A stretch of 64,000 nt of DNA, taken from positions 1,922-65,921 of the forward strand of contig JAWOCM010000069.1 in the NCBI GenBank assembly GCA_046483795.1, in the 5' to 3' direction. This document shows positions 32,742 through 62,064 of this stretch, piece after piece. The translations under genes were made by a program, and so were the position numbers. The stretch comes from Desulfuromonadales bacterium (GTDB taxonomy: Bacteria > Desulfobacterota > Desulfuromonadia > Desulfuromonadales > JAWOCM01). How positions within the stretch are numbered: position 1 is the first letter of the stretch; each line of letters opens with the position of its first letter. Below the pieces are notes generated by a model. That model did no database searches and had not been told where the DNA came from. It saw only the letters and a list, made by a program, of their open reading frames with translations.

Positions 32742-33089
32742 TTGGCGTTCCTCCGTTTCGTAAGTGAAAATTAACCGCAAAGGGCTGCGTGATGATATAT
32801 CTATTTTTGAACTCCTAACAGATTTTCACCTATTGTCCACCTTCAGAAGCGGGGTCTTTTGAAAGAGTGCGGAATCTCGTTAGTGCATCATCGTTTCTGT
32901 AAAATTCACCGAGGCTGACAAAAAGAAAGGCCACGATTGTCCTCTTGGTCACTTTGCCGAGATTGACAGAAAGTGATTCCTGAATAAAATATAATAAAAT
33001 GGAGCGTCCATTCGGAAACTCCGGCCGGACGCAGGGTTGTTCCCATAGCAGAAAAGGGGTATACACAAAAAGCAGGGGGGTGAAAGGAT

Positions 33090-35060: not shown

Positions 35061-35233
35061 GTTTTCCTCCTTGGTGGTTGGTGTGGTTTTGGATTTTTTG
35101 CTTAGAAAATCGAAAAGACCCATTTTGCTTCTCCTCTTCCTTTGTGGGAGTCCAGGTTTTTGGTAAGGTATAATTTACGTAATCAGCTCGTGTTGACTGT
35201 GCTGTACCTTAGAGCCTTTTCTGCACCGTCGCT

Positions 35234-46863: not shown

Positions 46864-47766
46864 TTGTCTGAAGAGAAGATACATTTCAAGTCCGGTTTCG
46901 TGGCGATTATCGGCCGGCCCAATGTCGGAAAGTCCACCCTGCTCAACAGGATTCTGGGACAAAAGGTTGCCATAACATCCAACAAACCTCAGACGACCCG
47001 CAACCGGATCCTCGGGATCCACAACCTTCCGGATGGCCAGATTCTGTTTCTCGACACTCCGGGCATACACAAGGCCAAGGGGCCGTTCAATAAATACATG
47101 GTCGACCAGGCCCTGTCCAGCTGCAGCGAGGTCGACGCGATCCTGCTTTTGGTCGAGGCCAACGATCGACCGGGCGGCGGCGACGAATACGTACTGAAAT
47201 TGATCGAACGCAGCAAGGCCCCGATTCTTCTGGTGATCAACAAGTGCGATCTGGTGCCCCGTCCGGAACTGCTTCCCCTGATCCAGTCCTGGGCCGAGCG
47301 TTTCCCCTTTCAGGGGATCATTCCTGTTTCGGCGACAAAAGGTGAAGGAGTGGACGATCTAGTCGAGACGATCGGTGGACTTCTGCCCGAAGGCCCGCAA
47401 TATTATTCCGGCGATATGATCACCGACCAGCCTGAACGATTTATCGTCGCAGAGATGATCCGCGAACAGGTTTTTCGACGGACACGGCAGGAGGTTCCTT
47501 ACGGAGTCGGGGTCCAGGTTGAGAGCTTCGAAGAAAAGCCGGAGAAGAACCTGGTCGTCATCAATGCCGTGGTCCAGGTCGAGCGCGAAGCCCATAAGTC
47601 GATTATTCTGGGCAAGCGCGGATCCATGATTCGGACTGTTGGCCAGGCCGCACGCAAGGAAATCGAGAGAATGCTTGGAACAAGGGTCTTCCTGGAGATC
47701 TTTGTCCGGGTCGAGCCGAACTGGACCTCTTCGGCCCGCGGCCTGAGAGAGATGGGCTACGAGTAG
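46864..47766 (+). CDS. era: GTPase Era
   Basis: SGFVAIIGRPNVGKSTLLN...DTPG...NKCD, plus a C-terminal KH domain. TTG start. Confidence 0.95.
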   Translation: MSEEKIHFKSGFVAIIGRPNVGKSTLLNRILGQKVAITSNKPQTTRNRILGIHNLPDGQILFLDTPGIHKAKGPFNKYMVDQALSSCSEVDAILLLVEANDRPGGGDEYVLKLIERSKAPILLVINKCDLVPRPELLPLIQSWAERFPFQGIIPVSATKGEGVDDLVETIGGLLPEGPQYYSGDMITDQPERFIVAEMIREQVFRRTRQEVPYGVGVQVESFEEKPEKNLVVINAVVQVEREAHKSIILGKRGSMIRTVGQAARKEIERMLGTRVFLEIFVRVEPNWTSSARGLREMGYE

Positions 47767-47784
47767 GGGGAAGGCAAAAGCGTT

Positions 47785-47882
47785 TAACGCAAAGGCGCAA
47801 AGAAGAGTCAGGTCAAGCCGCTATGAAAAAGCTTCTTGAATTTCTTTGCGGCTTGATTTTCAACCTCTGCGCCATTGCGTTA
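47785..47882. repeat. Nested imperfect inverted repeat in the era-der spacer
   Basis: The outer arms taacgcaaaggcgcaaag (47785-47802) and ctctgcgccattgcgtta (47865-47882) pair at 16 of 18 positions. The inner arms tcaagccgc (47813-47821) and gcggcttga (47849-47857) pair at 9 of 9. Confidence 0.7.
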
Positions 47883-47912
47883 GTCCCCGGATTCCGTTTT
47901 TTTCAATACTGA
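47823..47912 (+). CDS. Possible 29-codon hydrophobic mini-ORF (MKKLLEFLCGLIFNLCAIALVPGFRFFQY)
   Basis: Read directly from the sequence. There is no strong ribosome-binding site, and coding status is unproven. Confidence 0.15.
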   Translation: MKKLLEFLCGLIFNLCAIALVPGFRFFQY

Positions 47913-47954
47913 TGCGGCAGGCCGCATCAGTGCATCATAAAGGTAGATAAATCA

Positions 47955-49268
47955 ATGTCCGTCGTCGCCATAGTCGGTCGCCCCAATGTGGGGAAATCGA
48001 CCCTGTTCAATCGGATTCTCGGTCAGCGCAAGGCGCTCGTCGACGATTTTCCCGGGGTCACTCGCGATCGCAATTACGCTGAAGTCACGCGCTACGAGAA
48101 GGACTTTACCCTGATCGACACCGGCGGGTTCGAGCCCGTCAGCGAAGATCATCTGCTCAGGCAGATGCGGGAGCAGTCCCAGCTTGCCGTCGAGGAGGCG
48201 GATGTCATCGTTTTCGTTCTCGATGTACGCGAAGGCCTGACCGCTGCAGACCGGGAAGTCGCAGACCAGCTTCGCCAGACGAACAAACCGGTTCTTTATG
48301 TGGTCAACAAGGTCGACGGCGACAAACAGGAAGACCATGCCGCGGAATTCTACGCCCTCGGCATCGACTCTTTTTTCGCCGTTTCCGCCGAACACGGGCG
48401 GGGCCTGGGTGATGTGGTCGATCAGATCGTGAGCCTTCTGCCTGATACGACAAAGCGCAGCCCCGTCGAGGGCGAGACCCGGCTGGCGGTGATAGGTCGG
48501 CCGAACGTCGGCAAATCGTCCCTTGTCAATCGCCTTATCGGATCCGAACGCGTTGTCGCCAACCCTGTTTCAGGAACCACCCGCGACAGCATCGATACGA
48601 GATTCGTGTATAACAGGAACAATTACGTTCTGATCGATACGGCGGGGATCCGGCGAAAGGGCAAGGTCAGTCAGAAGCTGGAAAAATACAGTGTCGTTCA
48701 GGCACTCAAGGCGATGGATCGTGCCCACATTGTTCTCATGATCATCGATGCCGAACAGGGTGTGACCGAGCAGGACGCGACCGTTGCCGGTTATGCCCAT
48801 GAAAAGGGTCGGGCGGTTGTCCTGGTCGTCAACAAGTGGGACCTGGTCGCCAAGGACAATGCGACTATGGGCCGTTACGTCGAGAATCTCCGCCGCTCAT
48901 TCAAGTTTCTGCCTCATACGCCGATCGTTTTCATCTCCGCCCTGACCGGCCAGCGGGTGTCCCGCATCATGGCCGAAGTGGAGAAAGTTGCCGAAGAGTT
49001 CTCGCGAAAGATTTCAACACCGGCGCTCAACAGGGCGGTGCAGAAGGCTGTTGAGGCTCATCCGCCGCCGATGTACCGGGGGCGCCGCCTGAAATTCTTC
49101 TATGCGACGCAATCCGCGGTACGTCCGCCGACCTTTATCATGTTCGTCAGCAGGCCGGAGGGGGTTCATTTTTCTTATCATCGCTTTCTGTCCAACAAGA
49201 TTCGCGATGCTTTCGAACTGAAAAATGTGCCGATCCGTTTGAAATTGCGTCAGCGAGAACGTGACTAG
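47955..49268 (+). CDS. der: Ribosome-biogenesis GTPase Der (EngA)
   Basis: Two G-domains (VAIVGRPNVGKSTLFN and LAVIGRPNVGKSSLVN) plus a C-terminal KH-like domain. Confidence 0.95.
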   Translation: MSVVAIVGRPNVGKSTLFNRILGQRKALVDDFPGVTRDRNYAEVTRYEKDFTLIDTGGFEPVSEDHLLRQMREQSQLAVEEADVIVFVLDVREGLTAADREVADQLRQTNKPVLYVVNKVDGDKQEDHAAEFYALGIDSFFAVSAEHGRGLGDVVDQIVSLLPDTTKRSPVEGETRLAVIGRPNVGKSSLVNRLIGSERVVANPVSGTTRDSIDTRFVYNRNNYVLIDTAGIRRKGKVSQKLEKYSVVQALKAMDRAHIVLMIIDAEQGVTEQDATVAGYAHEKGRAVVLVVNKWDLVAKDNATMGRYVENLRRSFKFLPHTPIVFISALTGQRVSRIMAEVEKVAEEFSRKISTPALNRAVQKAVEAHPPPMYRGRRLKFFYATQSAVRPPTFIMFVSRPEGVHFSYHRFLSNKIRDAFELKNVPIRLKLRQRERD

Positions 49269-49388
49269 GAGCACCACAAAAACCTTTACTAAAGACGTTG
49301 CCTGAGATATGATTAAACCCCGTTTAATTCCAGGCTCTTACGAGCTGTTCCTGCAATTGATGCCGCTTTATCGAGCTGACTGGTTTAT

Positions 49389-50729
49389 ATGAGTCTTGTC
49401 GGAAACCTAGAAGATCTGGGCCTGGGGGAAATCCTCCAGATCGTCAGTCTGAGCCGCAAGTCAGGAGTTCTGTCCCTTCAAACCGATGGCAAAGAAGGGA
49501 AGGTCTTCTTTCGGGACGGGCAGGTCATTCGCGCCAACTCCTCGAGTCGGCGCGAAAACGTCGGGGAACTTCTGCTCAGCCGGGAACTGGTCGACTTTGA
49601 AACCCTCAGGGAGGCTGTTCTCGTTCAGCAACAGGAGGGAGACGACCGCCGCCTCGGCGAGATTCTGTCTGAGAGATTCGACGTGTCCCGCGATGCTATC
49701 GAGACTGCCGTCAGGGAGCAGGTCGAGAAAATCGTTTACAGCTTCTTTTCCTGGTCGGAGGGAACGTTCTCCTTCGATCTGGGTGATACCGAAGACCCGG
49801 GGGAAACGTCATTCAACCCGTTCCAGTTCATGCTGGACCAGGGGCTGAATCCCCAATGGCTTGCCATGGAAGGCAGTCGCCAGCTCGACGAGAAGATACA
49901 TCGCGGTGATCCGCTCGAAGACGAGGAGGAAGAAGGACCGACCTTCGATATCGACGACCTGATATCCCGGAATGCCGATTTTTCTGCGCCTGACCGGTCT
50001 CAATCCGAAGACCATTCCCCGGCTTCGACAAACGATAACGAAGTTTCCCTGAACGGGGGAGGTCCTGAGACAAATATCAGAGACATCGAAGACCAGCCGG
50101 CAGCCGCTCCTGATATCGCTGACGGGGGAGCAGAAGCGGCCTTCAATCTGGGCGCGGAGTTGCGCAGGGAGTTCGGCGAAAAGGATATCGACCCCGCTAG
50201 AGGTGTGGCCTCTCCCGGATTGCATCTGCTGCGCGACATGCTGGTCGAACTTCAGAATCCATCACTCGGAGGAGGGATCATCCTTCTGGTGCTGCGCTTC
50301 GCCAGTGAGCTGATGAACCGGGCGGTTATTTTTGCCGTCAAGGACAAGGAAATCGTCGGTCTCGGTCAGTTCGGCATCCAGGTCGAAGGGGAAAATGCCG
50401 ATGCACGCATCCGCAGGATTCGCCTGTCCACCGAGCAGGACTCCGTCTTCAAGCCCCTCGTCCAGTCCATGACGCCTATGAGGAGTGCCCTGGGTGAGGG
50501 ACCGGTCGATACTTATATCGCAGAGCAACTCGGCGGCGACCGGCCCGAGGAGGTTTTTCTCGGTCCCGTCCTCAGCGAGGGAAAAGTCGTGGCCATACTC
50601 TACGGCGACAACCTTCCCGAGCACACGGAAATCGGCAACACCGAGTCCCTGGAGATTTTTCTCTCCCAGGCCGGCCTGGCCATGGAAAAGGCTATATTGG
50701 AGCGGCGCCTGCGGGTCAACCGCGAATAA
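49389..50729 (+). CDS. DUF4388 domain protein with MshEN/T2SSE_N-like tandem motifs and C-terminal GAF-like domain
   Basis: The N-terminus LVGNLEDLGLGEILQIVSLSRKSGVLSLQ...GKVFFRDGQVI is the DUF4388 signature. Residues 57-109 form two 24-aa motifs separated by a 5-aa spacer. The C-terminal 170 aa look GAF-like. Confidence 0.75.
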   Translation: MSLVGNLEDLGLGEILQIVSLSRKSGVLSLQTDGKEGKVFFRDGQVIRANSSSRRENVGELLLSRELVDFETLREAVLVQQQEGDDRRLGEILSERFDVSRDAIETAVREQVEKIVYSFFSWSEGTFSFDLGDTEDPGETSFNPFQFMLDQGLNPQWLAMEGSRQLDEKIHRGDPLEDEEEEGPTFDIDDLISRNADFSAPDRSQSEDHSPASTNDNEVSLNGGGPETNIRDIEDQPAAAPDIADGGAEAAFNLGAELRREFGEKDIDPARGVASPGLHLLRDMLVELQNPSLGGGIILLVLRFASELMNRAVIFAVKDKEIVGLGQFGIQVEGENADARIRRIRLSTEQDSVFKPLVQSMTPMRSALGEGPVDTYIAEQLGGDRPEEVFLGPVLSEGKVVAILYGDNLPEHTEIGNTESLEIFLSQAGLAMEKAILERRLRVNRE

Positions 50730-50755
50730 CAGAATTCAGGAACGGAGCATCCAGC

Positions 50756-51124
50756 GTGGCACAAAAGATTCTCATCACCGAAGATTCGCCGACGATGCGT
50801 TCCCTGATCGTTTCCACCATCCAGGCGATGGGCGATTACGATATCATCGAAGCGGCGAACGGTTTCGAGGCCCTGCGAGAGTTGCCCCGCAACCAGGTCG
50901 ACCTGGTTATCACGGATATCAACATGCCGGACATCAACGGCCTGGAACTGGTCAGTTTCATCAAGACCAACGATCAGTACAAACAGACTCCCCTCTTTAT
51001 CATCAGTACCGAGAGCAGTGAGCGGGACCGCGACAAAGGCATGAAGCTCGGAGCCGATGCTTATCTTGTCAAGCCGTTTTCCCCTCAGGAACTTCAGAAA
51101 CTGATCAAGCGTTTTCTGGGATAG
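50756..51124 (+). CDS. cheY: CheY-like response regulator
   Basis: ILITEDSPTMR...LVITDINMPDINGLE...STE...YLVKPF. Confidence 0.9.
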   Translation: MAQKILITEDSPTMRSLIVSTIQAMGDYDIIEAANGFEALRELPRNQVDLVITDINMPDINGLELVSFIKTNDQYKQTPLFIISTESSERDRDKGMKLGADAYLVKPFSPQELQKLIKRFLG

Positions 51125-51133
51125 GAGGCCCTT

Positions 51134-53161
51134 GTGGGCGACAAGTCATCTCCAAGTGCCATCAAGGAATTCCTCGGCGAGGCCGAGGAGATTCTCGAAG
51201 AGCTCAACCTCGAGTTGGTCGAACTCGGAGAGCGGGCAGACAGCGGAGAGTCCGATCCGGATCTGCTGAACAGCATTTTTCGCGGCGCTCATTCCATCAA
51301 GGGGCTGGCGGGGATGTTCGGCTTCGATGACATCTCCGAGCTCTCGCACCAGATGGAGAGTCTTCTTGACAATCTGCGCCTCGGTAAAGTCCCCCTCAAT
51401 GAGGTCCTTGTCGAAACACTTTTCGATGCCCTCGAGACTTTGACCCGCATTATTCACGGCAAGGGGGAAAGGGAAGATTTTACGCTGGACTTCACCCCCC
51501 TGGTCGGCCGGTTCGATTCTCTCCTTGGAGGCGGAGGCGGGAGCGACAAGGACGAACTCCTCAAGCAGGTCGATCCGACACTGGTCAGCGTTCTGACAGA
51601 ATTCGAGGAGCACAGACTCCTTGAAAATCTCAGGAATGGACATCATCTTTACCGCATAAAGACCTCTTTTGACCTGGCCAGTTTTGATCAGGATCTTGCC
51701 GCCCTGACCGCCGCACTCAAGAGAGAGGCAGAGGTGATCAGCACCCTTCCGAGTGTCGATGAGAACATGGACGGGGGGATCGCCTTTCAATTGATCGTCG
51801 GCACCGCAGTGACCATGGACAAACTGGTTGAAGCCGCCGACCGGAAAAATCTGGATATCGAAAAACTGGCCGGAAAAGCTGCGGAGGCACCTGTCGAGAG
51901 CGCCGAAGGCGCCTCTCCGGAAGCCCAAGAGGCAGGCCGGAACGCCGTCGAAGAGCACGCGAGTCTGCGCTCGATCAGCCGAACAGTCCGTGTCGATATA
52001 GAAAAGCTCGATGTCCTCATGAATATCGTGGGGGAGCTTGTCCTGTGCAGGGCGGCCATTAACGAGAATTGCGAATCTCTCAAGCAAATCGGCAACGTGG
52101 AAATGGTCTCCGAATTGCAGAAGGCGACGCGCAACCTCGAACGACGCCTCGACGAGTTGCAAAAGGGTGTTATGGAGGTCCGCATGGTCCCTGTCAGCCA
52201 GCTCTTCGACAAAATGGCGCGCATCGTGCGACGGGTCTCCGGTGAATACGGGAAACAGGTCTCACTCGATATCCGGGGCGCCGATACGGAACTCGACAAG
52301 CTGATCGTCGAAGAGTTGTCCGATCCGTTGATGCACATCATCCGCAATGCAGTCGACCACGGCATCGAATCGGCTCACGAGCGTCGTGAGATGGGGAAAC
52401 CGGAAAAGGGGACGATCAGCCTGCGTGCCTCGCAGAAAGGGAACCATGTCGTCCTGGAAATTCAGGACGACGGCCATGGGATCGATATCGACAAAGTGCG
52501 CCAGAGAGCCATAGCCAGAGGGCTGATCTCCGCCGATGCGGACATTTCACGTGCGAAACTCGTCGAACTGATTTTCGAGCCAGGATTCTCAACAATGGAC
52601 GAGGTCAGTGAGCTTTCAGGGCGAGGCGTGGGAATGGATGTTGTTAAAAACAACATCGCTTCCTTGTCCGGCATGATAGAAGTCGACTCTGAATTCGGCA
52701 AGGGCACCACCATGACGATCACCCTGCCGATCACCCTTGCCATTATCAAGGCTTTGATCATTGAGATATGCAACAAGACCTATGCCGTTCCGATCAATTC
52801 AGTGATGGAGACGCTCATGGTCAATGCCGATGATATCCGGACCATAGATCGCCGGGAAGTCTACGAACTTCGCGATTCGACCCTTCCACTGATCCGTCTG
52901 GAGAATGTCTTCGATCTGCCCCGAACCGGCGGGAGCCCGGAGCGCTTCTATATTGTCGTTGTCGGTCTGGCCGAGAAGAAAATCGGTATTATCGTCGATG
53001 AACTGGTCGGCCAGCAGGATGTCGTTATAAAGTCCCTGGGCGAAGCGTTGTCCTTTGTCAAGGGGTTTGCCGGCGCCGCTGATCTGGGCAACCAGAAAAC
53101 GGTTCTTGTCCTCGATGTGGGCGGCCTGATCGGGGATACCCTGAAGGGGGAGGCGGCCTGA
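51134..53161 (+). CDS. cheA: Chemotaxis histidine kinase CheA
   Basis: Hpt motif FRGAHSIKGLAGMFG, dimerisation region, HATPase (DDGHGID...SGRGVGMDVV), and a C-terminal CheW-like domain. AGGAGG ribosome-binding site with a GTG start. Confidence 0.95.
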   Translation: MGDKSSPSAIKEFLGEAEEILEELNLELVELGERADSGESDPDLLNSIFRGAHSIKGLAGMFGFDDISELSHQMESLLDNLRLGKVPLNEVLVETLFDALETLTRIIHGKGEREDFTLDFTPLVGRFDSLLGGGGGSDKDELLKQVDPTLVSVLTEFEEHRLLENLRNGHHLYRIKTSFDLASFDQDLAALTAALKREAEVISTLPSVDENMDGGIAFQLIVGTAVTMDKLVEAADRKNLDIEKLAGKAAEAPVESAEGASPEAQEAGRNAVEEHASLRSISRTVRVDIEKLDVLMNIVGELVLCRAAINENCESLKQIGNVEMVSELQKATRNLERRLDELQKGVMEVRMVPVSQLFDKMARIVRRVSGEYGKQVSLDIRGADTELDKLIVEELSDPLMHIIRNAVDHGIESAHERREMGKPEKGTISLRASQKGNHVVLEIQDDGHGIDIDKVRQRAIARGLISADADISRAKLVELIFEPGFSTMDEVSELSGRGVGMDVVKNNIASLSGMIEVDSEFGKGTTMTITLPITLAIIKALIIEICNKTYAVPINSVMETLMVNADDIRTIDRREVYELRDSTLPLIRLENVFDLPRTGGSPERFYIVVVGLAEKKIGIIVDELVGQQDVVIKSLGEALSFVKGFAGAADLGNQKTVLVLDVGGLIGDTLKGEAA

Positions 53162-53163
53162 CG

Positions 53164-53973
53164 ATGTACGAGAGCTATTACGGTTTCAACGAACGTCCGT
53201 TCAGCAAGACGCCCGACCCGCGTTTCCTGTTCATGAGCAAGGGACACAGGGAGGCTCTGGTTCGTCTTATTTACGCCGTGGAGGAACGCGACCTCATCCT
53301 CTTCACCGGTGAGATCGGTTGCGGCAAGACGACCCTGTCCCGGCGCCTGATGGACGAACTCAATGAGGCCGGCTACCGCATCATCCTTTTTGTCAATCCC
53401 CGCCTTACGCCGATGGAGTTTCTTCGGGCGCTGGCACTGCGGCTCGACGTAGAAGCTCCGGCGGGGGGCAAGACCGACCTGCTGGAACAGATCGGCTCTG
53501 CCCTGTATGCTTTTTATGAACGGGATATCTGCCCTGTCCTGGTCATCGACGAGGCGCAACTGATTCCCCATCGCGAGACCTTCGATGAAATCCGTCTGCT
53601 GACCAATTTCCAGCTGGACGATCAGAACCTTTTGAGCGTGGTCCTGATGGGGCAACCCGAACTTCGAAAACGCCTGGCGCACCGCGTGTATGAGCCTTTG
53701 CGACAGCGTATCGGGATGCAGTTCAATCTGCGGCCTCTTGATCTCGAAGAAACGGCCAGTTACCTCGATTTTCGACTGACGACGGCGGGGGGAGAAGCCG
53801 GATTATTCGAGCCGGGAGCGGTTTCAAGAATCTACGAATATTCCGGAGGAATTCCCAGAAAAATCAACCATGCCGCTTCCCTGGCACTGCTTGAGGGTTT
53901 CGGTCGTGAAGCGTCGAATATCGACGCCGGGATCCTTGACGCCGTCATGGAAGAACTGGTGCTGGTTTCCTGA
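53164..53973 (+). CDS. ExeA/GspA/MshM-like AAA+ ATPase
   Basis: YYGFNERPFSKTPDPRFLFMSKGHREALVRLIYAVEERDLILFTGEIGCGKTTLSRRL...LVIDEAQ...FQLDDQNLLSVVLMGQPEL is the characteristic ExeA N-terminal module. Confidence 0.8.
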   Translation: MYESYYGFNERPFSKTPDPRFLFMSKGHREALVRLIYAVEERDLILFTGEIGCGKTTLSRRLMDELNEAGYRIILFVNPRLTPMEFLRALALRLDVEAPAGGKTDLLEQIGSALYAFYERDICPVLVIDEAQLIPHRETFDEIRLLTNFQLDDQNLLSVVLMGQPELRKRLAHRVYEPLRQRIGMQFNLRPLDLEETASYLDFRLTTAGGEAGLFEPGAVSRIYEYSGGIPRKINHAASLALLEGFGREASNIDAGILDAVMEELVLVS

Positions 53974-53994
53974 AAGGACAGCGGGGTCATTGCA

Positions 53995-54825
53995 ATGTTG
54001 AATCTTTCCGATATACGTAAAAAGGCCGGCAGCAAGGTAAAAAAGAACAAGCGTTCCGAAGGAGACCCGGCCGAAGAGTCTGACAGGGCTTTGTCAACCA
54101 GGGCAACACCCGTCGCGCCGAGCAGTGCCGGGACGCAGACCGGACAGCAGGGCGAAGAGAACGCCTCTTCCGGCACGAATCCGGAGGAAAAGGGGATTTC
54201 GCCGCCAGAAACGAGCTCGTCGACATCGGAATCTTCCGGTCAAGCGTCCGGGAAGCGACCGGAAAGCGCGGGCTTCTCCATGCAAGGGACCACGGATCCG
54301 CTCGAATCCCTTTTCCGTGCCAATCCGGAGTTGGGGCTGGCAACGGAAGAAGCCTATTTCGAAGGACTCGTCGGACAGGACCATGAGACTGAAGAGGCTT
54401 TTCGCCAGCTTCTTTCATTCGCCCTCGGCGAGGAAGAATACGCAGTCGATATCCAGGATGTTCAGGAGATCATCAAGCTGCGTGAGATGACCGATGTTCC
54501 CCGGGTTCCCGACTTCGTCCTGGGGATCATCTCCCTGCGCGGCAATATCATCCCGGTCTTTGATCTCAAGAGGCGCCTGCACCTGGGAACCATAGAGCCG
54601 ACGATCTCGACGCGGATCGTGGTCTGCCGTGCCGGAGGGAAATCTGTCGGCCTGGTCGTCGATAAAATCAACCAGGTGGTTCGCCTGCCTGAAGGGGCCA
54701 TTGAAAAGGTCTCCGGGCTCCTGAGCGGTGTCAATAAAGATCTCGTGGAAGGCGTTGGGCGCTACGAGGGCCGCATGCTTATTCTACTCGACCTGTCTAT
54801 CGTTCTGGCGGTTGAGCAAAGATGA
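53995..54825 (+). CDS. cheW: CheW-domain protein with an about 125-aa disordered S/E/P/G-rich N-terminal extension
   Basis: The C-terminal half LLSFALGEEEYAVDIQDVQEIIKLREMTDVPRVPDFVLGIISLRGNIIPVFDL is a CheW fold. Confidence 0.85.
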   Translation: MLNLSDIRKKAGSKVKKNKRSEGDPAEESDRALSTRATPVAPSSAGTQTGQQGEENASSGTNPEEKGISPPETSSSTSESSGQASGKRPESAGFSMQGTTDPLESLFRANPELGLATEEAYFEGLVGQDHETEEAFRQLLSFALGEEEYAVDIQDVQEIIKLREMTDVPRVPDFVLGIISLRGNIIPVFDLKRRLHLGTIEPTISTRIVVCRAGGKSVGLVVDKINQVVRLPEGAIEKVSGLLSGVNKDLVEGVGRYEGRMLILLDLSIVLAVEQR

Positions 54826-54837
54826 AGGAGGGATTTC

Positions 54838-55212
54838 GTGTCCAAAAAGAAGATTCTGGTCGTCGAAGACGAAGAAAGTCTGTTGAAGCTGGAAAGCATT
54901 TTGCTGACGTCCAAGGGGTACGAAGTCCAGGGAGTGACAACCGGCCAGGCGGCTCTTGATGCCATTGCCGAAGAGAAACCCGACCTGGTTCTGTTGGACA
55001 TCATGCTTCCCGAGATGGACGGATTCGAGGTGTGCCGCCGAATCAAGGAGAATCCCCAAATCAATGACCTGCCCGTTGTCATGCTGACGGCGAAGAAGAG
55101 TCGCGAAGATATGGCGCGCGGACAGCAGGTGGGCGCCGACTGGTACATCACCAAACCTTTCAAGTCGGTCAATGTGATCGAAACGATACAGAGATTTTTG
55201 AATAAAGGATGA
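54838..55212 (+). CDS. Single-domain response regulator
   Basis: ILVVEDEESL...LVLLDIMLPEMDG...MLTAK...YITKPF. GAAGGAGG ribosome-binding site with a GTG start. Confidence 0.9.
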   Translation: MSKKKILVVEDEESLLKLESILLTSKGYEVQGVTTGQAALDAIAEEKPDLVLLDIMLPEMDGFEVCRRIKENPQINDLPVVMLTAKKSREDMARGQQVGADWYITKPFKSVNVIETIQRFLNKG

Positions 55213-55249
55213 TGGCGGTGCCATCCACAGAAGTTTTTTGAAGGTATCC

Positions 55250-55792
55250 ATGATGGAACATCGGCAAAACAGGGAAACACCGGAAGAAGAGACAGGCCGC
55301 AAGGAAATTCAGCTGGCCTGTTTCCGGATCGCAGAGGAAATGTATGCCCTGGATATTATGCGGATCAAAGAAATCATCCGGCCGCAGAAACTGACTCCTG
55401 TTCCCAAAGCTCCGGCTTTCGTGGAAGGTGTCATTAATCTGAGAGGCGCGGTTATCCCGGTCGTCGACCTGAGAAAGCGTTTCGATCAGCCGATCGATCC
55501 GGACAACAGGGCAACACGTATACTGATCTGTACACTTTCCGGAAAAGTGGTGGGTCTTATTGCCGACGAAGTCACAGAGGTACGTCGATATACCCGGCGG
55601 GAAGTGCAGCCGGCTCCTCATTTTCTCAAAGGAAAAGGGGCCGAATATTTTCTCGGCGTCTGTCGTCGGGAAGACGAACTGGTCATGCTCATCGATCTGG
55701 AAAAGATTCTTACCACCGACGAAAAAATCAACCTTGAGAAGGTCGATTCGTTCTCTGGGCATATGCAACCCGCCCCGGGCGATAAAGAGTAG
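55250..55792 (+). CDS. cheW: Chemotaxis coupling protein CheW
   Basis: LACFRIAEEMYALDIMRIKEIIRPQKLTPVPKAPAFVEGVINLRGAVIPVVDL. The ATG at 55250 has a GAAGG ribosome-binding site; the track start at 55238 is a TTG. Confidence 0.9.
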   Translation: MMEHRQNRETPEEETGRKEIQLACFRIAEEMYALDIMRIKEIIRPQKLTPVPKAPAFVEGVINLRGAVIPVVDLRKRFDQPIDPDNRATRILICTLSGKVVGLIADEVTEVRRYTRREVQPAPHFLKGKGAEYFLGVCRREDELVMLIDLEKILTTDEKINLEKVDSFSGHMQPAPGDKE

Positions 55793-55854
55793 CCTGCCCC
55801 TTTTCCGGGAAATCGCCGCTGTCTTTTCAGCAGATTCTTATTGAAGGTATTTCG

Positions 55855-56745
55855 ATGATTGTCAATTGTCCGACGTGTCATGTTCGCATGAAGCTTGATG
55901 CTTCCCGACATGACGGCAAAAGAGTTACAATCCGTTGCAGAAGATGTCGGCACGTATTCAAGACGAACATAGCGACATCCCCCGCCAGTGAAACAGGGCG
56001 GGTTCTTATCGTTCATTCCGACGAGGAACTCTGTGCCACAATCGCCGATATCTTCAGGCGAGAAAATATTCCCTATGATATCTGCCATGATGGCCAGGCG
56101 GCCCTTCGCACCATGGCAGCAAAGCCTCCGGCTGTGGCCCTGATCGATGTCGCTTTGCCGGGATTTTACGCTTTTGAGGTTGTCGAGAAGGTTCGCCGTC
56201 AGCCAGCCCTGCACGATGTCAGGATCATTCTTCTGTCTTCGGTTTATAACAAGGCGGCTTACAAGCGCTCACCCACATCCCTTTTCGGGGCGGACGATTA
56301 TCTCGAAAAGCATCATATATCCGACCAGTTGGTCAGCAAGGTCCGTCGACTGGGAGGGGGTGGCGGCATCTCGAAACCCCGGGAGGCAAATGCCGGGGTG
56401 GAGACAAAACAGAAAGAGGCCGGACCGGAGAATGCCGAGAAAATCAATACCAGGGTCCAGCAGGCGGAAGACCATGAAGTGAGTTCGTCTTCAGCGGATT
56501 CGGGCTGGGAAAAGGCTCGAAGATTGGCCCGTATCATTGTTTCCGATATAGCCCTCTACAACGAGGAACGGGTTGCAGAGGGGATCCGTACCGGAACTTT
56601 TTACCACATTCTGGGGGCTGAAGTGGAAGAGGGGCGACGATTGTTCGCCGAGAGGGTCGCTGAAGATATCCGCAGCAAACAGGATCTTCTTCAGGAGGCT
56701 TTTGACGCTTTCATCGAACGTCGCCAGAATGAACTGCAGAGCTGA
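55855..56745 (+). CDS. MJ0042-type zinc-ribbon plus receiver-like domain plus conserved uncharacterised C-terminal module
   Basis: MIVNCPTCHVRMKLD...IRCRRCRHVFKT (CxxC...CxxC). The receiver-like core is VLIVHSDEE...ALIDVALPG...LLSS...LEK. The C-terminal module is ARRLARIIVSDIALYNEERV... Confidence 0.7.
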   Translation: MIVNCPTCHVRMKLDASRHDGKRVTIRCRRCRHVFKTNIATSPASETGRVLIVHSDEELCATIADIFRRENIPYDICHDGQAALRTMAAKPPAVALIDVALPGFYAFEVVEKVRRQPALHDVRIILLSSVYNKAAYKRSPTSLFGADDYLEKHHISDQLVSKVRRLGGGGGISKPREANAGVETKQKEAGPENAEKINTRVQQAEDHEVSSSSADSGWEKARRLARIIVSDIALYNEERVAEGIRTGTFYHILGAEVEEGRRLFAERVAEDIRSKQDLLQEAFDAFIERRQNELQS

Positions 56746-56759
56746 TAGATGGTGAAGAC

Positions 56760-58772
56760 GTGACGAAAATACAGGATATATCTCATTTGCTGCAATCTCC
56801 CGAAGAAGAGCGCAGATTGCAGGGGCTTCGCGGGCTGGCCGAGAGCACAGAAGAGTTTCCCCGGGAATGGATCTACCAGGCTCTCGGGGACGACTCCTGG
56901 CGAGTGCGCAAGGAAGGGGTGGATCTCTTTTTGAGGCGCCCAGAGAATGCCCGCTTCGCCGACGAGGTGGTAAAACTGCTCCATTCGGAGGAGAATGCCG
57001 GCCTGCGCAATGCTGCGATGGAGATACTTATCCGGCTCGGCCGACAGGCCGTGCCCCATCTGCTGTCTGAAATCGGCACGCAGGATCATGATGTACGCAA
57101 GTTCATTCTTGATATCCTCGGCGAGATCGGCGATCCAGGATGTGTCCCCACCCTGGTAGAGGCCTTGAAAGATCCGGATGAAAATGTCCGCTCCGCCGCC
57201 GCTGAAAATCTCGGCAAACTCAGAGCCTCCGAAGCGATACCGGCGCTTCTGGATGCCATGGAGACGGACGACCTCTGGTTGCGTTTCACTATACTGGAGG
57301 CTTTGGGGCAGATCGGCGGCCAGATCGATGAAGAGCGGCTGCTTCGTTTCAAGGATGAAAGGTTGCTCCGCAAGGCGCTGATCGACTGTCTCGGACGTGT
57401 TGGCTCTGTTTGCGTGGTCCCCGCTATTGTCGAGGCTCTGGACGACGATATGCGCAATGTGCGCGAATCCGCCGTTGTCGCTCTGGCCCGCATCGCCGAG
57501 TCTTATCCCGAGGAGGTTCGCAGATCCCTCTCCGGCGTCCGTCAGACAGCGGCTGCGGACCATATTGCCGAATTGCTCGATCACCAGCAACAGGGGATTC
57601 GCCAGGCGTCGCTAAAGCTTCTGGGCTTTTTGTCGGAGCCACGCTACGCGCCGCGACTGCTCGATCTGCTTGATGACCAGTCCATGGTCGAGTCCGCCAT
57701 GCAGGCCTTGATCGCTATGGGAGCCGACGGGGCGGCCCAACTCGCGTCCATTGTTTCGCCCGAAGAACCCCGTCGGTGTGCCTACGTCTCCTACCTCATC
57801 GGTGAAACCGGCTACGGCGCCGGTCGGGATTTCCTTCTGGCGTCCATCGGTTCCGATGAGGACGAATTGCGGATGGTGGCGCTGCAGGCGCTGGGAAAAA
57901 TCGGGGATGCCTCCTCTATCGCTCCCCTGGTGGAACACCTCGAAAATGAAACCGAGGAAACCCGCCAGGCGGTGCAGACCGCCCTGGAACGTATCGGTCG
58001 ACGCTGCCGACAGGAATTGACCGAAGCGCTTGAGCCGTTACTGGACTCGCAGAATCCGGAATTACGCACCAGCGTCATCATGGTCCTCGGCCAGCTTCTG
58101 GGCGCGGAATTCGAGGACCATGTGATCAGGGCGCTCAAGGACCCATCGCCCGATGTGCGTCGAGCAGCGGTGACCGTTCTTGACGGTCATCCTTACGATG
58201 GCCAGATCCGGGCTCTGAAGATGGCGCTGACGGACGAGGACGCCGAGGTGCGCGCTCAGGCCGCAGAAGTGCTGGGTCGCATCGACGACCCCCAGGCTGT
58301 CGAGGCTCTCGGACTGGCCTGTGGTGACGAAGATATCTGGGTTCGCTCGACGGCCGTGCGTTCTCTGGGGCACTTCGAAAATGACGCAGCCTTTTCCGTT
58401 GTTTCCCGAACGGCCGACGATTCCGTAGGCCTGGTCACTATCGCCGCGCTGGAGACACTGACGGCCATTGATGCCGGTAAAGCCCGTCCTTTACTCCTCG
58501 ACGCTCTTTACCACCGGGATGAGGAAGTGGTCAAGGCCGCCATGCAGCTTCTTTTTTCTTCGGCCTACATGGACTGGTCCCGCGAAGAACGCGAGCATCT
58601 TATCTCCCACCCGCACTGGGACGTTCGCCTGACATTTATCCGCAACCTGTTTGAAACACAGGGTGAGAATTGCCGGAGTCAACTCGTGGAAAGATTGAAG
58701 ATGGAGAGGGAAGAACCGGTAAGACAGGCGATCCAGGAGTGTTTGGCTCTTATGGACAGTTTCGAGGTTTAG
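56760..58772 (+). CDS. HEAT-repeat (PBS-lyase-type) protein, 670 aa
   Basis: More than a dozen repeats of the D.(D).VR..A..ALG.IG pattern, e.g. DPDENVRSAAAENLGKL, DPSPDVRRAAVTVL and DEDAEVRAQAAEVLGRI. Confidence 0.85.
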   Translation: MTKIQDISHLLQSPEEERRLQGLRGLAESTEEFPREWIYQALGDDSWRVRKEGVDLFLRRPENARFADEVVKLLHSEENAGLRNAAMEILIRLGRQAVPHLLSEIGTQDHDVRKFILDILGEIGDPGCVPTLVEALKDPDENVRSAAAENLGKLRASEAIPALLDAMETDDLWLRFTILEALGQIGGQIDEERLLRFKDERLLRKALIDCLGRVGSVCVVPAIVEALDDDMRNVRESAVVALARIAESYPEEVRRSLSGVRQTAAADHIAELLDHQQQGIRQASLKLLGFLSEPRYAPRLLDLLDDQSMVESAMQALIAMGADGAAQLASIVSPEEPRRCAYVSYLIGETGYGAGRDFLLASIGSDEDELRMVALQALGKIGDASSIAPLVEHLENETEETRQAVQTALERIGRRCRQELTEALEPLLDSQNPELRTSVIMVLGQLLGAEFEDHVIRALKDPSPDVRRAAVTVLDGHPYDGQIRALKMALTDEDAEVRAQAAEVLGRIDDPQAVEALGLACGDEDIWVRSTAVRSLGHFENDAAFSVVSRTADDSVGLVTIAALETLTAIDAGKARPLLLDALYHRDEEVVKAAMQLLFSSAYMDWSREEREHLISHPHWDVRLTFIRNLFETQGENCRSQLVERLKMEREEPVRQAIQECLALMDSFEV

Positions 58773-58778
58773 GAGCCG

Positions 58779-59666
58779 ATGCTCTTTCTGACACCAGAAA
58801 TCCCCATGAACGACGAAGAATTCCTTTTATTGAAGGATTTCGTCTATCAGCATTGCGGCCTTCATTTCTCTGCCGATACCAAGTATCTTCTCGAGAAGCG
58901 TCTCGGCAAACGTCTTCAGGCACATCGGCTCAAGAGTTTCAAGGACTACTATTATTTCCTGCGTTACAATCAGAAAAAAGAGGCTGAGCTGGTAGAAGTC
59001 CTGAATGCGCTGACGACGAACGAGACCTATTTTTTTCGAGAGGACTATCAGCTAAAGACGTTCATCGAAGAGATCATTCCCGAAGTCACGGCGCGTCGCA
59101 AACGGGAGGGAAGTCGCAAACTCCGGATCTGGAGCGCCGGGTGCTCCTCCGGCGAAGAGGCCTACACCATTGCCATGCTGCTTCTGGAAAAGCCGGAACT
59201 GAGCGGGTGGGATATCGAGATCATCGGAACAGATATCAGCCAGCGCGTGCTCGGAATGGCCCGCAAGGGGGTTTACGGCCAGCCCTCCTTTCGTACCACC
59301 GACAGCGCCTACTTGCAAAAATATTTCCTGCCGACGGAAGATGGCAAATACCGCATCTGCGACAAGGTCAAGAGTTTGGTCACGATCAGTTATCTCAACC
59401 TCTTCGACCGCTCCCGCGTCGGTCTGCTCGGGCATGTGGATGTCATTTTCTGCCGGAACGTGATCATCTATTTTGATAGTGCCGCCAAAAAAAAGGTGGT
59501 TGAGGGGCTGTACGAACGCTTGCGTCCCGATGGTTTTCTGCTGCTGGGACACTCCGAATCGCTCATGAATATCAGCACGTCTTTTGTTTTGCGTCACTTT
59601 ACCAATGACATGGTCTATCAACGATCTCAGGCGGCACGGTCCGGAAGAGAAGGGGATGAGCGGTGA
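58779..59666 (+). CDS. cheR: Chemotaxis protein methyltransferase CheR
   Basis: TNETYFFRE...LRIWSAGCSSGEEAYTIAMLL...IFCRNVIIYFD. Confidence 0.9.
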   Translation: MLFLTPEIPMNDEEFLLLKDFVYQHCGLHFSADTKYLLEKRLGKRLQAHRLKSFKDYYYFLRYNQKKEAELVEVLNALTTNETYFFREDYQLKTFIEEIIPEVTARRKREGSRKLRIWSAGCSSGEEAYTIAMLLLEKPELSGWDIEIIGTDISQRVLGMARKGVYGQPSFRTTDSAYLQKYFLPTEDGKYRICDKVKSLVTISYLNLFDRSRVGLLGHVDVIFCRNVIIYFDSAAKKKVVEGLYERLRPDGFLLLGHSESLMNISTSFVLRHFTNDMVYQRSQAARSGREGDER

Positions 59667-60760
59667 AGGATATCCGTGTTCTTGTCGTCGACGATTCGGC
59701 ATTCAATCGTCGCACAATCACAAAGATGCTCGACTCCGAAGCGGGGATCGAGGTTGTCGGGTACGCCTCCGACGGCGAGGAAGCCCTGCGAAAGGTCTTC
59801 GATCTGAAACCGGACCTGGTCACCCTCGACCTGGAAATGCCGCGTATGGATGGTTTTACTTTTCTGCGCATCCTGATGAACAACTGTCCGACTCCGGTTA
59901 TTGTCGTTTCGGCTCGAACCCAGGATGAGGATGTCTTCAAGGCACTCGAATTCGGTGCCGTGGAGTTCGTCGCCAAACCATCGGCGCGAATCTCGCCCGA
60001 CCTGATCAATATCCGCAAGGGGCTGGTTCAGAAAGTTTTCGCCGCCGCCGGCACTGATATGGAGAAGGTCCTGGGGAGATCGACCATCAACCCCTCTGTG
60101 GCTCGCAGAACTCCTCAGGTTCGGGCACCGAAGACCCGATCTGTAGCGAGAACCCTGCACAAGTCGGTGGAAGGCAAGGCATCCGTCGTCGTCATCGGAG
60201 CGTCGACCGGCGGTCCTCCCGCCCTTCAGAAAGTCCTGGAGGACATCGACCACATGGAGTCCGTCGCAGTCATTGTCGCCCAGCACATGCCCTCCGGCTT
60301 CACGCGGGCTTTCGCCGACCGGTTGAATCGATTCTGCAGGATGGAAATAAGGGAAGCCCAGACCGGAGACAAAGTACAGCCTCAACGTGTCCTGATAGCT
60401 CCTGGAGGGAAGAATCTTTTTCTTGTCAGACACGGCCGCGATGTTGTGGCGCAGCTTAAGGACCTAAACAGCGAATATCGTTATGTGCCTTCGGTCGATG
60501 CCTTGTTTCAAAGCGCTGCAGGCATCTATGGCAAGGATTTGCTGGGTGTCGTCCTGACAGGGATGGGCAACGACGGAGCATCCGGAGTGCAGAGTATCCG
60601 AAAGGCGGGCGGACAGGTCCTTGCTGAATCGGAAGAGACAAGTGTCGTGTACGGTATGCCCAAAGAGGCCGTTGCCACGGGTTGCGTCGACAGGGAATTG
60701 CCTTTGCGAGAGATCGGAGGAGAGATTGCTCTGCGTTGCCGAAGTCACGAAAATCATTAG
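59663..60760 (+). CDS. cheB: Protein-glutamate methylesterase/glutaminase CheB (receiver plus esterase)
   Basis: VLVVDDSAF...LVTLDLEMPRMDG, then VVIGASTGGPPAL...AQHMP...LTGMGNDG. The GTG start overlaps the cheR stop. Confidence 0.9.
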   Translation: MKDIRVLVVDDSAFNRRTITKMLDSEAGIEVVGYASDGEEALRKVFDLKPDLVTLDLEMPRMDGFTFLRILMNNCPTPVIVVSARTQDEDVFKALEFGAVEFVAKPSARISPDLINIRKGLVQKVFAAAGTDMEKVLGRSTINPSVARRTPQVRAPKTRSVARTLHKSVEGKASVVVIGASTGGPPALQKVLEDIDHMESVAVIVAQHMPSGFTRAFADRLNRFCRMEIREAQTGDKVQPQRVLIAPGGKNLFLVRHGRDVVAQLKDLNSEYRYVPSVDALFQSAAGIYGKDLLGVVLTGMGNDGASGVQSIRKAGGQVLAESEETSVVYGMPKEAVATGCVDRELPLREIGGEIALRCRSHENH

Positions 60761-60837
60761 GAAAAGGTAGATATTTAAAGCTTTTGCTGCTACGATGTGC
60801 CCCCCAAGAGCATTTCTGTGTCTTATAGGAGATCGCG

Positions 60838-61662
60838 ATGCCTGAGAATAAACAAGATAAATCACCGAAGGCGGAAAAAGTCGAAGAGTTTCTTCATATC
60901 TTCAAAAAAGGGGCCGACTTTACGCAGGACCTTCTCAAGGAAAACGAGCGCCTGCGATTCGAGGTCCTCAAACTCGAGGAAGAGAACAGGGATTTGAAGG
61001 AGGTCTCAGGCGGGGATGAAACCGTTTTGCAGAAACGGATTCAGGCGCTGGAGGAAGAAAAACAGGAAATTCTGAACCGTATCAAGAAGGTCGAGGCGGA
61101 AAACATGGATTTCGCCAACCGTTATGTTGATATCGAAAATGAAAACAACATGCTGGCGAACCTCTATATCGCGTCCTATCAGCTTCATTCGACTCTTGAT
61201 TTTCGGGAAGTCCTCCAGATTATTACTGAAATCATCATCAACCTGATCGGGGCCGAAGAGTTCGGAATCCTGTTGCTGGACGAAAAGCAGAACAGGCTTC
61301 AGGCAGTGGCCTCCGAAGGGTTGGAGTTGAGTGATATTCCTGTGGTCGCGCTTGGCCAGGGCCTCATCGGGGAGATTGCCAAGACGGGAGAAAATCATTT
61401 CTTCCAGGAACTGGATAAATACGAAAAGGATATCAACACCCCGATGGTCTGTATCCCGCTGAAGATCAAAGAGCGGGTCATCGGCGTGATTGCGATTTAT
61501 CAGCTCCTGGAGCAGAAAAGTCATTTCGAGGACGTCGATTATGAACTTTTTACGCTGCTGGCCGGACATGCTGCCACAGCAATTTTTTCTTCCAAGCTCT
61601 ATTCCGAATCGGAACGCAAGCTGAGTACAATCCAGGGCTTTATCGATTTAATGACGAAATAA
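60838..61662 (+). CDS. Coiled-coil plus GAF domain protein
   Basis: The N-terminal 100 aa form a heptad-rich coiled coil (LKLEEENRDLKE...LEEEKQEILNRIKKVEAEN), followed by a GAF-like core (LDFREVLQIITEIIINLIGAEEFGILLLDE...PLKIKERVIGVIAIYQL). Confidence 0.8.
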   Translation: MPENKQDKSPKAEKVEEFLHIFKKGADFTQDLLKENERLRFEVLKLEEENRDLKEVSGGDETVLQKRIQALEEEKQEILNRIKKVEAENMDFANRYVDIENENNMLANLYIASYQLHSTLDFREVLQIITEIIINLIGAEEFGILLLDEKQNRLQAVASEGLELSDIPVVALGQGLIGEIAKTGENHFFQELDKYEKDINTPMVCIPLKIKERVIGVIAIYQLLEQKSHFEDVDYELFTLLAGHAATAIFSSKLYSESERKLSTIQGFIDLMTK

Positions 61663-61686
61663 CCTTGAAGGTTCGTGGAGGGATAC

Positions 61687-62064
61687 ATGTCATCATATAA
61701 GGTATTGATTGTCGAAGACTCTCCGACCATGCGCCAGTTGATTGTTTTTGCTCTGAAGCGCATCCGGGGGGTCGAGATAGTCGAGGCGAATGACGGAGTG
61801 GATGGACTGAAGAAAATCTCCAGCGAGAAATTCGATCTGATTTTTACCGACATCAATATGCCGATCATGGATGGCCTTAAATTGGTCAGCCTGGTGAGAA
61901 ATGATCAGAATTACAAGGATGTTCCCATCTGCATCATCACCACTGAAGGGGCCAGTGAAGACCGTGAGCGAGCCCTTGGTCTCGGTGCGAATGATTATAT
62001 CACCAAGCCGATCCAGACAACAAAGATACTCGATGTCGCCAGGCGATTGCTGGCTATGGAATAA
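61687..62064 (+). CDS. cheY: CheY-like response regulator (paralog of 50756-51124)
   Basis: VLIVEDSPTMRQL...LIFTDINMPIMDGL...TTE...YITKP. A GGAGGG ribosome-binding site precedes the ATG at 61687. Confidence 0.9.
   Translation: MSSYKVLIVEDSPTMRQLIVFALKRIRGVEIVEANDGVDGLKKISSEKFDLIFTDINMPIMDGLKLVSLVRNDQNYKDVPICIITTEGASEDRERALGLGANDYITKPIQTTKILDVARRLLAME

Follow-up and report, generated by a model that had tools for sequence, protein, structure and literature searches.

We report here on a gene at positions 49389-50729 (forward strand) of a 64,000-nucleotide stretch of DNA from a Desulfuromonadales bacterium (contig JAWOCM010000069.1), hereafter the window. The gene encodes a protein of 446 residues that begins with a PATAN domain (DUF4388 in Pfam), and an earlier note on this DNA had seen in its N-terminal part two degenerate motifs of the MshEN type, a receptor domain for cyclic di-GMP (c-di-GMP). 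Our analysis shows that the relation is one of homology: the segment is a genuine, diverged homologue of MshEN_N, the four-helix bundle that binds c-di-GMP. In the predicted structure, residues 57-119 correspond to the PATAN 'alpha-clip', two helical hairpins that make up a four-helix bundle inserted between PATAN strands. Judged from its residues, this clip may plausibly bind a cyclic dinucleotide, at a chance that we put a little under even. The relation between the PATAN clip and MshEN is already in the literature, in the alpha-clip description of 2006 and in the MshEN tables of 2016. As relayed in bioRxiv 10.1101/2021.06.11.447907, Makarova, Koonin, Haselkorn and Galperin (2006) described the alpha-clip as two repeated antiparallel helical hairpins in PATAN and placed the same repeats at the N-terminus of GspE/PilB ATPases; the protein of the window is a member of this class and shows no essential difference from it. 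The open reading frame, with repeat 1 at residues 57-80, is borne out by translation, and the protein is laid out as follows.

49389..50729, forward strand: gene for the 446-aa PATAN(alpha-clip)-linker-GAF-like protein (open reading frame, Pfam DUF4388, synteny)
49389..49556, forward strand: PATAN core, N-terminal part, with strand 2-6, helix 12-22 and strands 26-32, 35-42 and 45-51 (AlphaFold2, predicted local distance difference test (pLDDT) ~90; Pfam DUF4388)
49557..49628, forward strand: alpha-clip repeat 1, residues 57-80, with predicted alpha1 (58-64) and alpha2 (70-83)
49629..49649, forward strand: spacer QQEGDDR of 7 residues, residues 81-87 (read from the DNA)
49650..49721, forward strand: alpha-clip repeat 2, residues 88-111, with predicted alpha3 (89-97) and alpha4 (101-119)
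49722..49907, forward strand: PATAN core, C-terminal part, with the end of alpha4, strand 126-131, a low-confidence loop and helix 155-172 (Pfam, AlphaFold2)
49908..50210, forward strand: acidic low-complexity linker, residues ~174-274 (homologue sequences, precomputed Pfam)
50211..50726, forward strand: predicted GAF-like C-terminal domain (AlphaFold2 and Foldseek)

Repeat 1 reads NVGELLLSRELVDFETLREAVLVQ (residues 57-80, 49557-49628) and repeat 2 reads RLGEILSERFDVSRDAIETAVREQ (residues 88-111, 49650-49721). From the end of repeat 1 onward the DNA runs cag caa cag gag gga gac gac cgc cgc ctc ggc, and these codons make the spacer seven residues long (QQEGDDR). The earlier note had given it exactly five residues (QEGDD) and had placed repeat 2 at residues 86-109, so that its end at 49715 falls 6 nt short of 49721. 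A spacer of five is not strictly defining in any case, since one of seven is present both in GSPII-C of PilF, a proven binder, and in PilB of G. metallireducens. The departures that the note listed from the strict motif RLGxx(L/V/I)(L/V/I)xxG(L/V/I)(L/V/I)xxxxLxxxLxxQ are correct in the register it used, namely N in place of R1 and E in place of G10 (repeat 1), and F in place of G10 and D in place of L11 (repeat 2); a regular expression of this motif finds no match in the protein. Measured against the relaxed motif that Wang et al. gave in 2016 (PMC5013675), [RKPN]hGxxhhxx[GAS]hhxxxxhxxxhxx[QNKRYWST], repeat 1 departs at position 10 (E) alone and repeat 2 at three positions, 7 (S), 10 (F) and 11 (D). 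The positions that correspond to ligand contacts are N57/V58/G59/L73/V77/Q80 and R88/L89/G90/I104/V108/Q111. Among them, Gly3 (G59, G90) and Gln24 (Q80, Q111) are present in both repeats, as had been claimed, and the hydrophobic triad of positions 2, 17 and 21 is kept (V58/L73/V77 and L89/I104/V108), with Val and Ile replacing Leu.

The homology is carried by profile and structure comparisons alike. In NCBIfam, the model NF053729 ('cyclic di-GMP-binding domain, MshE-related', c-di-GMP_motif) matches residues 59-111, the E-value being 1.2e-5 (25.0 bits) when the entire protein is searched and 3.3e-7 (30.0 bits) with the clip by itself; NfrB models rank next. Searched as a single sequence against the PDB, the protein has as its best matches only GSPII domains of T. 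thermophilus PilF (E 0.03-0.9). With the family profile, PilF is found at 5.1e-5, PilB of G. metallireducens at 1.9e-4 and another PilB at 5.9e-4, three PilB entries being hit between 1.9e-4 and 6e-4, and weaker matches are M. xanthus PilB (0.015) and V. cholerae MshE (0.12). The alignment with G. metallireducens PilB is without gaps, the spacer having seven residues in both. Against an independent MshEN_N alignment, hhalign gives a probability of 97% and an E-value of 8.7e-11 over residues 56-111. In addition, an independent hidden Markov model (HMM) was made from 13 MshEN_N sequences, none of them of this family. Run on the 526 six-frame segments of the window, it singles out this reading frame alone (E 3.9e-5, the runner-up being at 1.3). 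Of 5000 shuffled versions none went above 12.4 bits, and the segment itself has 22.9.

The structure comparison, which the earlier note had proposed as a check, points the same way. The best two PDB matches of the AlphaFold2 model in Foldseek are both c-di-GMP-bound PilF GSPII-B (9glg_A and 8pdk_A), on which it superposes with a root-mean-square deviation (rmsd) of 1.2-1.3 Å over 57-58 columns, an identity of 33-35% and a probability of 1.00. The Foldseek E-values are no better than 0.06-0.08 because the match is short, covering only ~58 columns of the 138-139 residues of GSPII-B. Taken together, the NCBIfam E-values, the family profile, hhalign and Foldseek agree on the relation to MshEN that the note had suggested. 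A chance resemblance, that is, amphipathic helical hairpins with Leu, Gly and Gln mimicking the motif by accident, could draw on the failure of the strict regular expression and on the missing Pfam T2SSE_N match. It is, however, very improbable and is refuted by the HMM, shuffle, hhalign, PDB-profile and Foldseek results: none of the 5000 shuffles attains the real score, the profile matches in the PDB are specific to the N-termini of PilB and PilF, and more distant PATAN clips, at 54 bits, exceed the NCBIfam cut-off.

The latter clips are P0257 and P0260, both at ~54 bits on NF053729. Their repeats are near-canonical, with Gly10 in both and a 7-residue spacer, and as the first clips to assay for binding they would be a better choice than the protein of the window. 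On the same model the family member P0007 scores 39.2 and one degenerate distant clip 21. We rejected this score as a proxy for binding, as the non-binder GSPII-A has 54.4 bits and the binder GSPII-C 54.3.

Compared with MshEN_N as known from V. cholerae MshE (5HTL) and from PilF GSPII-B (8PDK/9GLG) and GSPII-C, the clip has in common the two repeats of 24 residues, each with Gly3 and Gln24, the hydrophobic positions 2, 6, 7, 17 and 21, and a superposable four-helix bundle. It differs in having Asn at position 1 of repeat 1, in the absence of the turn Gly10 from both repeats, and in the spacer of 7 instead of 5. The context differs as well: the bundle here stands within PATAN, while in MshEN it is followed by the MshEN_C/T2SSE_N1 subdomain and an ATPase. 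That subdomain was not found after the bundle in our model, where the chain returns to PATAN strand 126-131. As for the tables of 2016, the supplement of Wang et al. (PMC5013675) lists 'MshEN' segments of M. xanthus and S. aurantiaca that start near residue 50-60, for example MXAN_4438, MXAN_4739, MXAN_6627, MXAN_1145 and STAU_5589. MXAN_3211 is in its column of predicted binders and MXAN_1145 in that of predicted non-binders; the former is called a PATAN protein in bioRxiv 10.1101/2024.03.11.584430. These PATAN-clip segments run, as here, into a strand of the form Y-x-h-F-x-W-x-x-G-T-h-x-F, and the proteins belong to subfamilies other than that of the window, their binder status in the tables being a predicted one. 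Fusions of MshEN_N to CheA, CheX and REC are also listed there (PMC5013675).

The position of the clip inside the PATAN domain is clear from Pfam. DUF4388 (PF14332; PATAN, with the newer name PatA_N) is the sole Pfam match of the protein and covers residues 5-169 with an E-value of 1.1e-31 and 109.9 bits, against a gathering cut-off of 25. This match reaches over positions 2-121 of a 122-position profile, and the alignment takes in ~45 extra residues at the repeats, which are therefore an insertion within the domain. In the AlphaFold2 model of residues 1-175, made from 39 orthologues (pLDDT 86.6), helices 58-64, 70-83, 89-97 and 101-119 are placed between strands 45-51 and 126-131. The repeats thus lie inside DUF4388, and the earlier description of them as flanked by it has to be given up. 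The same holds for the description of DUF4388 as PilZ-related, since no PilZ family is matched in Pfam at E<=10 and no PilZ structure is among the best 50 Foldseek matches. Outside the clip, the PATAN core has no PDB match in Foldseek.

Conservation within the family was derived from 171 distinct clips. In repeat 1, G3 is kept in 100%, Q24 in 99%, N1 in 97%, and L17 and L21 each in 87%; the corresponding values for repeat 2 are 99% for G3, 96% for Q24, 89% for R1, 95% for I17 and 92% for V21. The spacer is seven residues long in 166 clips, the other 5 having eight. A turn Gly is found at position 10 of repeat 1 in 73% and at position 11 of repeat 2 in 68%, the latter being the place of the repeat-2 glycine in this family, after a conserved Phe; the E (repeat 1) and D (repeat 2) that the protein of the window has at these turns each occur in ~6-7% of the family. 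A profile search for distant PATAN clips gave 10,116 representative clusters (50% identity) at E<=1e-3, and in 146 representatives of these more distant clips G3 and Q24 are kept in just 54-71%. This shows that the fold does not require G3 and Q24. Within the family, the contact residues rank with the best-conserved positions of the clip, and more distant PATAN clips have lost them. Moreover, the non-binders XpsE and GSPII-A have lost G3 or Q24 while the family keeps both, which favours a retained ligand site.

The contacts with the ligand are known from MshE and PilF. There, position 1 stacks on a base, the backbone amides of Gly3 and of the next residue read guanine, Gln24 touches ribose and phosphate, position 2 of one repeat and positions 17 and 21 of its partner make up a hydrophobic triad, and Gly10 makes turns only. 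Gly3 is essential, as mutants of G11 and G40 in MshE lose binding; changes of Arg1 (Arg9) and Gln24 (Gln32) in MshE cost at most 5-fold. In PilF, GSPII-B has Lys and Leu at position 1 and binds c-di-GMP at 6 nM, and GSPII-C, where Pro stands at position 1 and the spacer has seven residues, binds at ~0.46 uM. Ile at positions 17/21 lowers the affinity by only ~3-fold. Every class of nucleotide-contact residue is kept in the clip (Gly3, Gln24, positions 2/17/21 and Arg1 of repeat 2), which suggests that it most likely still docks a nucleotide. The clip would then most likely dock one cyclic dinucleotide, c-di-GMP or possibly 3',3'-cyclic GMP-AMP (cGAMP), across the N-termini of alpha1 and alpha3, probably with an affinity below that of canonical MshEN. 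Through such binding, the contact of the PATAN/GAF-like regulator with its chemosensory partner would be modulated, and the clip would act as a feedback input to the pathway, because the Geobacter pathway works with the receiver-diguanylate cyclase EsnD. As a whole, an MshEN-like clip that docks a nucleotide and modulates a chemosensory regulator is our best explanation, held tentatively and at somewhat less than an even chance. The further proposal is more doubtful, and we would sooner doubt than accept it: that the clip of the GSU2224 family is a working receptor, of c-di-GMP or of cGAMP by way of asymmetric Asn/Arg half-sites, feeding back between the output of EsnD and the chemosensory array.

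A number of points weigh against binding. Both turn glycines are lost in the protein (E66; D98 after F97), repeat 1 has Val at positions 2 and 21, and it begins with the Asn that 97% of the family share; in engineered PilF GSPII-A, binding was lost with Ser as the first residue of repeat II. In GSPII-A even a perfect consensus does not bind where neighbouring structure covers the site, and the clip in our model is embedded in the PATAN core. The profile search against T2SSE_N/MshEN models that the earlier note had proposed came out divided: T2SSE_N (PF05157) has no Pfam match at E<=10, either with the whole protein or with residues 51-119, and the NF053729 scores of 25-30 bits are below the curated cut-off of 38, while the other profile tests are significant. 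The N-terminal domain is very conserved overall, with 76% mean column identity, so that near-invariance of the Gly and Gln is weak evidence. No GGDEF, EAL or HD-GYP gene is found in the 64-kb window, the motif matches there being spurious or from other families (prismane, MetRS, a GAF protein). Our literature search found no binding assay of any PATAN alpha-clip, and the characterised cyanobacterial PATAN regulators work through contact with PilB1/PilC, a mechanism in which no nucleotide is known to take part (bioRxiv 10.1101/2021.06.11.447907).

The sub-threshold scores, the lost glycines, the precedent of GSPII-A (where context abolishes binding despite the motif and a score of 54.4 bits), the protein contacts of the cyanobacterial regulators and the conservation of the whole domain also favour another explanation, in which the clip is homologous to MshEN_N and non-binding, a relic or protein-interaction module that offers a rigid helical surface for dimerisation or partner docking, a role already proposed for the PATAN domains that bind PilB1/PilC. 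Its conserved Gly and Gln would then serve helix capping, packing or a protein interface; in fact N57-x-x-D/E60 resembles a helix capping box around the conserved N57, and MXAN_1145, a PATAN-clip protein, is a predicted non-binder in Wang et al. 2016. We regard this as a serious possibility, if one that falls short of even. Against it, the residues lost in the known non-binders are all kept here, G3 and Q24 are lost in many distant PATAN clips and not in this family, and the model superposes closely on ligand-bound GSPII-B. It is improbable that the ligand is 3',3'-cGAMP rather than c-di-GMP, recognised by asymmetric half-sites with Asn in repeat 1 and Arg in repeat 2. This asymmetry is kept family-wide, MshEN_N binds cGAMP weakly (dissociation constant 3.3e-4 M) and c-di-AMP not at all, and the family is confined to Desulfuromonadales/Geobacterales among the best genome hits; 3',3'-cGAMP is a prominent second messenger in Geobacter-type bacteria. 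However, no MshEN-type domain is known to prefer cGAMP, the Gly3 backbone amides of both repeats read O6/N7 of guanine, where adenine would clash, and the proposal is purely speculative.

Turning to the rest of the protein, the C-terminal ~175 residues have no sequence match in Pfam or the PDB. Their AlphaFold2 model is of moderate confidence (pLDDT 67), and the best 50 Foldseek matches are all GAF domains (best E 2.9e-6, template modelling (TM) score 0.5-0.6), so that the predicted fold is GAF-like, as the earlier note had it. A REC domain stands between PATAN and the C-terminal domain in ~90% of the 120 closest relatives (550-580 aa). REC-less forms of 411-447 aa, in which the acidic linker replaces REC, are dispersed among the relatives, which suggests either repeated loss or two coexisting forms. 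Without a REC domain the protein cannot be a phospho-acceptor. That the 446-aa form is a truncated or frameshifted REC protein was considered and rejected, for the REC-less relatives are on several independent contigs. The protein is also 100% identical to one of a Desulfuromonadales metagenome-assembled genome.

From sequence and gene order, the protein is the orthologue of GSU2224 in G. sulfurreducens, without its REC domain, and its gene heads a chemosensory operon of the esn (electrode-sensing network) type. In G. sulfurreducens, GSU2225 is EngA, GSU2224 is annotated as 'response regulator', GSU2223 is CheY, GSU2222 CheA/EsnC, GSU2221 an ATPase and GSU2220 CheW/EsnB (PMC8242959, PMC5585712). 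The gene order of the esn cluster GSU2220-2224 matches that of the window (era, der, PATAN regulator, CheY, CheA, ATPase, CheW), while the protein of the window differs from GSU2224 in lacking REC. A transposon insertion in GSU2224 leads to oxygen-tolerant biofilms in G. sulfurreducens (PMC8242959), and colonisation of electrodes requires EsnABC and also EsnD, the receiver-diguanylate cyclase (PMC5585712); these phenotypes of the GSU2224 insertion and of esnABCD are those of Geobacter and not of the present organism. Mutants of GSU2221 were also defective on electrodes in a Tn-Seq screen (PMC5585712). In the window, the run CheA-AAA_22 ATPase-CheW (51134-54825) has the order of esnC-GSU2221-esnB. 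The neighbouring genes are the following.

46864..49268, forward strand: era and der (engA), genes of ribosome-associated GTPases, immediately upstream (open reading frames, conserved synteny)
50756..51124, forward strand: CheY-like receiver, GSU2223 equivalent (Pfam Response_reg)
51134..53161, forward strand: CheA, EsnC/GSU2222 equivalent
53164..53973, forward strand: AAA_22 ATPase, GSU2221 equivalent (PMC5585712)
53995..54825, forward strand: CheW-like scaffold, EsnB/GSU2220 equivalent
54838..62064, forward strand: CheY, CheW, Zn-ribbon-REC, HEAT-repeat protein, CheR, CheB, coiled-coil-GAF protein and REC

The PATAN gene is the first of a 13-gene chemosensory operon (49389-62064, all on the same strand with gaps of <=106 nt), and its place at the head of a Che operon, already noticed earlier, agrees with the synteny. 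In the 120-nt gap between der and the PATAN gene there is one weak promoter-like site (49285-49313), and no terminator-like site was found. The order era-der-PATAN-CheY-CheA-ATPase-CheW is kept in Geothermobacter, where the operon order is identical, and by tblastn in six Geobacter-group genomes (Geobacter, Geotalea, Citrifermentans, Geomonas, Geomobilimonas). The N-terminal domains in Geobacter-group genomes are 57-62% identical; on the whole, 298 relatives were found in the species-representative genome collection. The operon contains no gene for a methyl-accepting chemotaxis protein, though CheR and CheB are present. With this, and with no GGDEF, EAL or HD-GYP gene in the window, the receptor and any cyclase output must be encoded elsewhere, like esnA and esnD in Geobacter. 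The Zn-ribbon-REC gene and a 670-aa HEAT-repeat gene form a pair (55855-58772) that is also found in Geothermobacter (L001 16759-19638) and is reminiscent of Cpc7, the output protein with HEAT repeats in the Che7 system of M. xanthus. A protein with coiled coil and GAF domain (274 aa) and a single-domain REC end the operon (60838-62064), which has two GAF-type domains when the GAF-like C-terminus of the PATAN protein is counted. Elsewhere in the window, two paralogous hybrid-cluster (prismane) genes of 558-559 aa stand close together on the minus strand (31101-32780 and 33447-35123).

A similar arrangement is known in cyanobacteria. PixG, PilG and PixE, of the PatA type (PATAN-REC), are likewise alpha-clip PATAN proteins encoded by the first gene of a Tax/Pix Che-like operon, and a single-domain CheY comes next, as in the window. 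The difference is that the family of the window has the architecture PATAN-(REC)-GAF-like, whereas the cyanobacterial proteins act on PilB1/PilC of the type IV pilus.

Should the clip turn out to bind c-di-GMP, PATAN proteins in their thousands would be candidate receptors of a second messenger, and the PATAN domain would for the first time be a second-messenger sensor. A well-defined target for a binding assay is at hand in residues 1-175 or in GSU2224. The REC-less variants would have no inputs other than the nucleotide and the GAF-like domain. The Esn pathway of Geobacter would gain a direct nucleotide input, closing the loop from EsnD to the array that controls electrode and biofilm colonisation.

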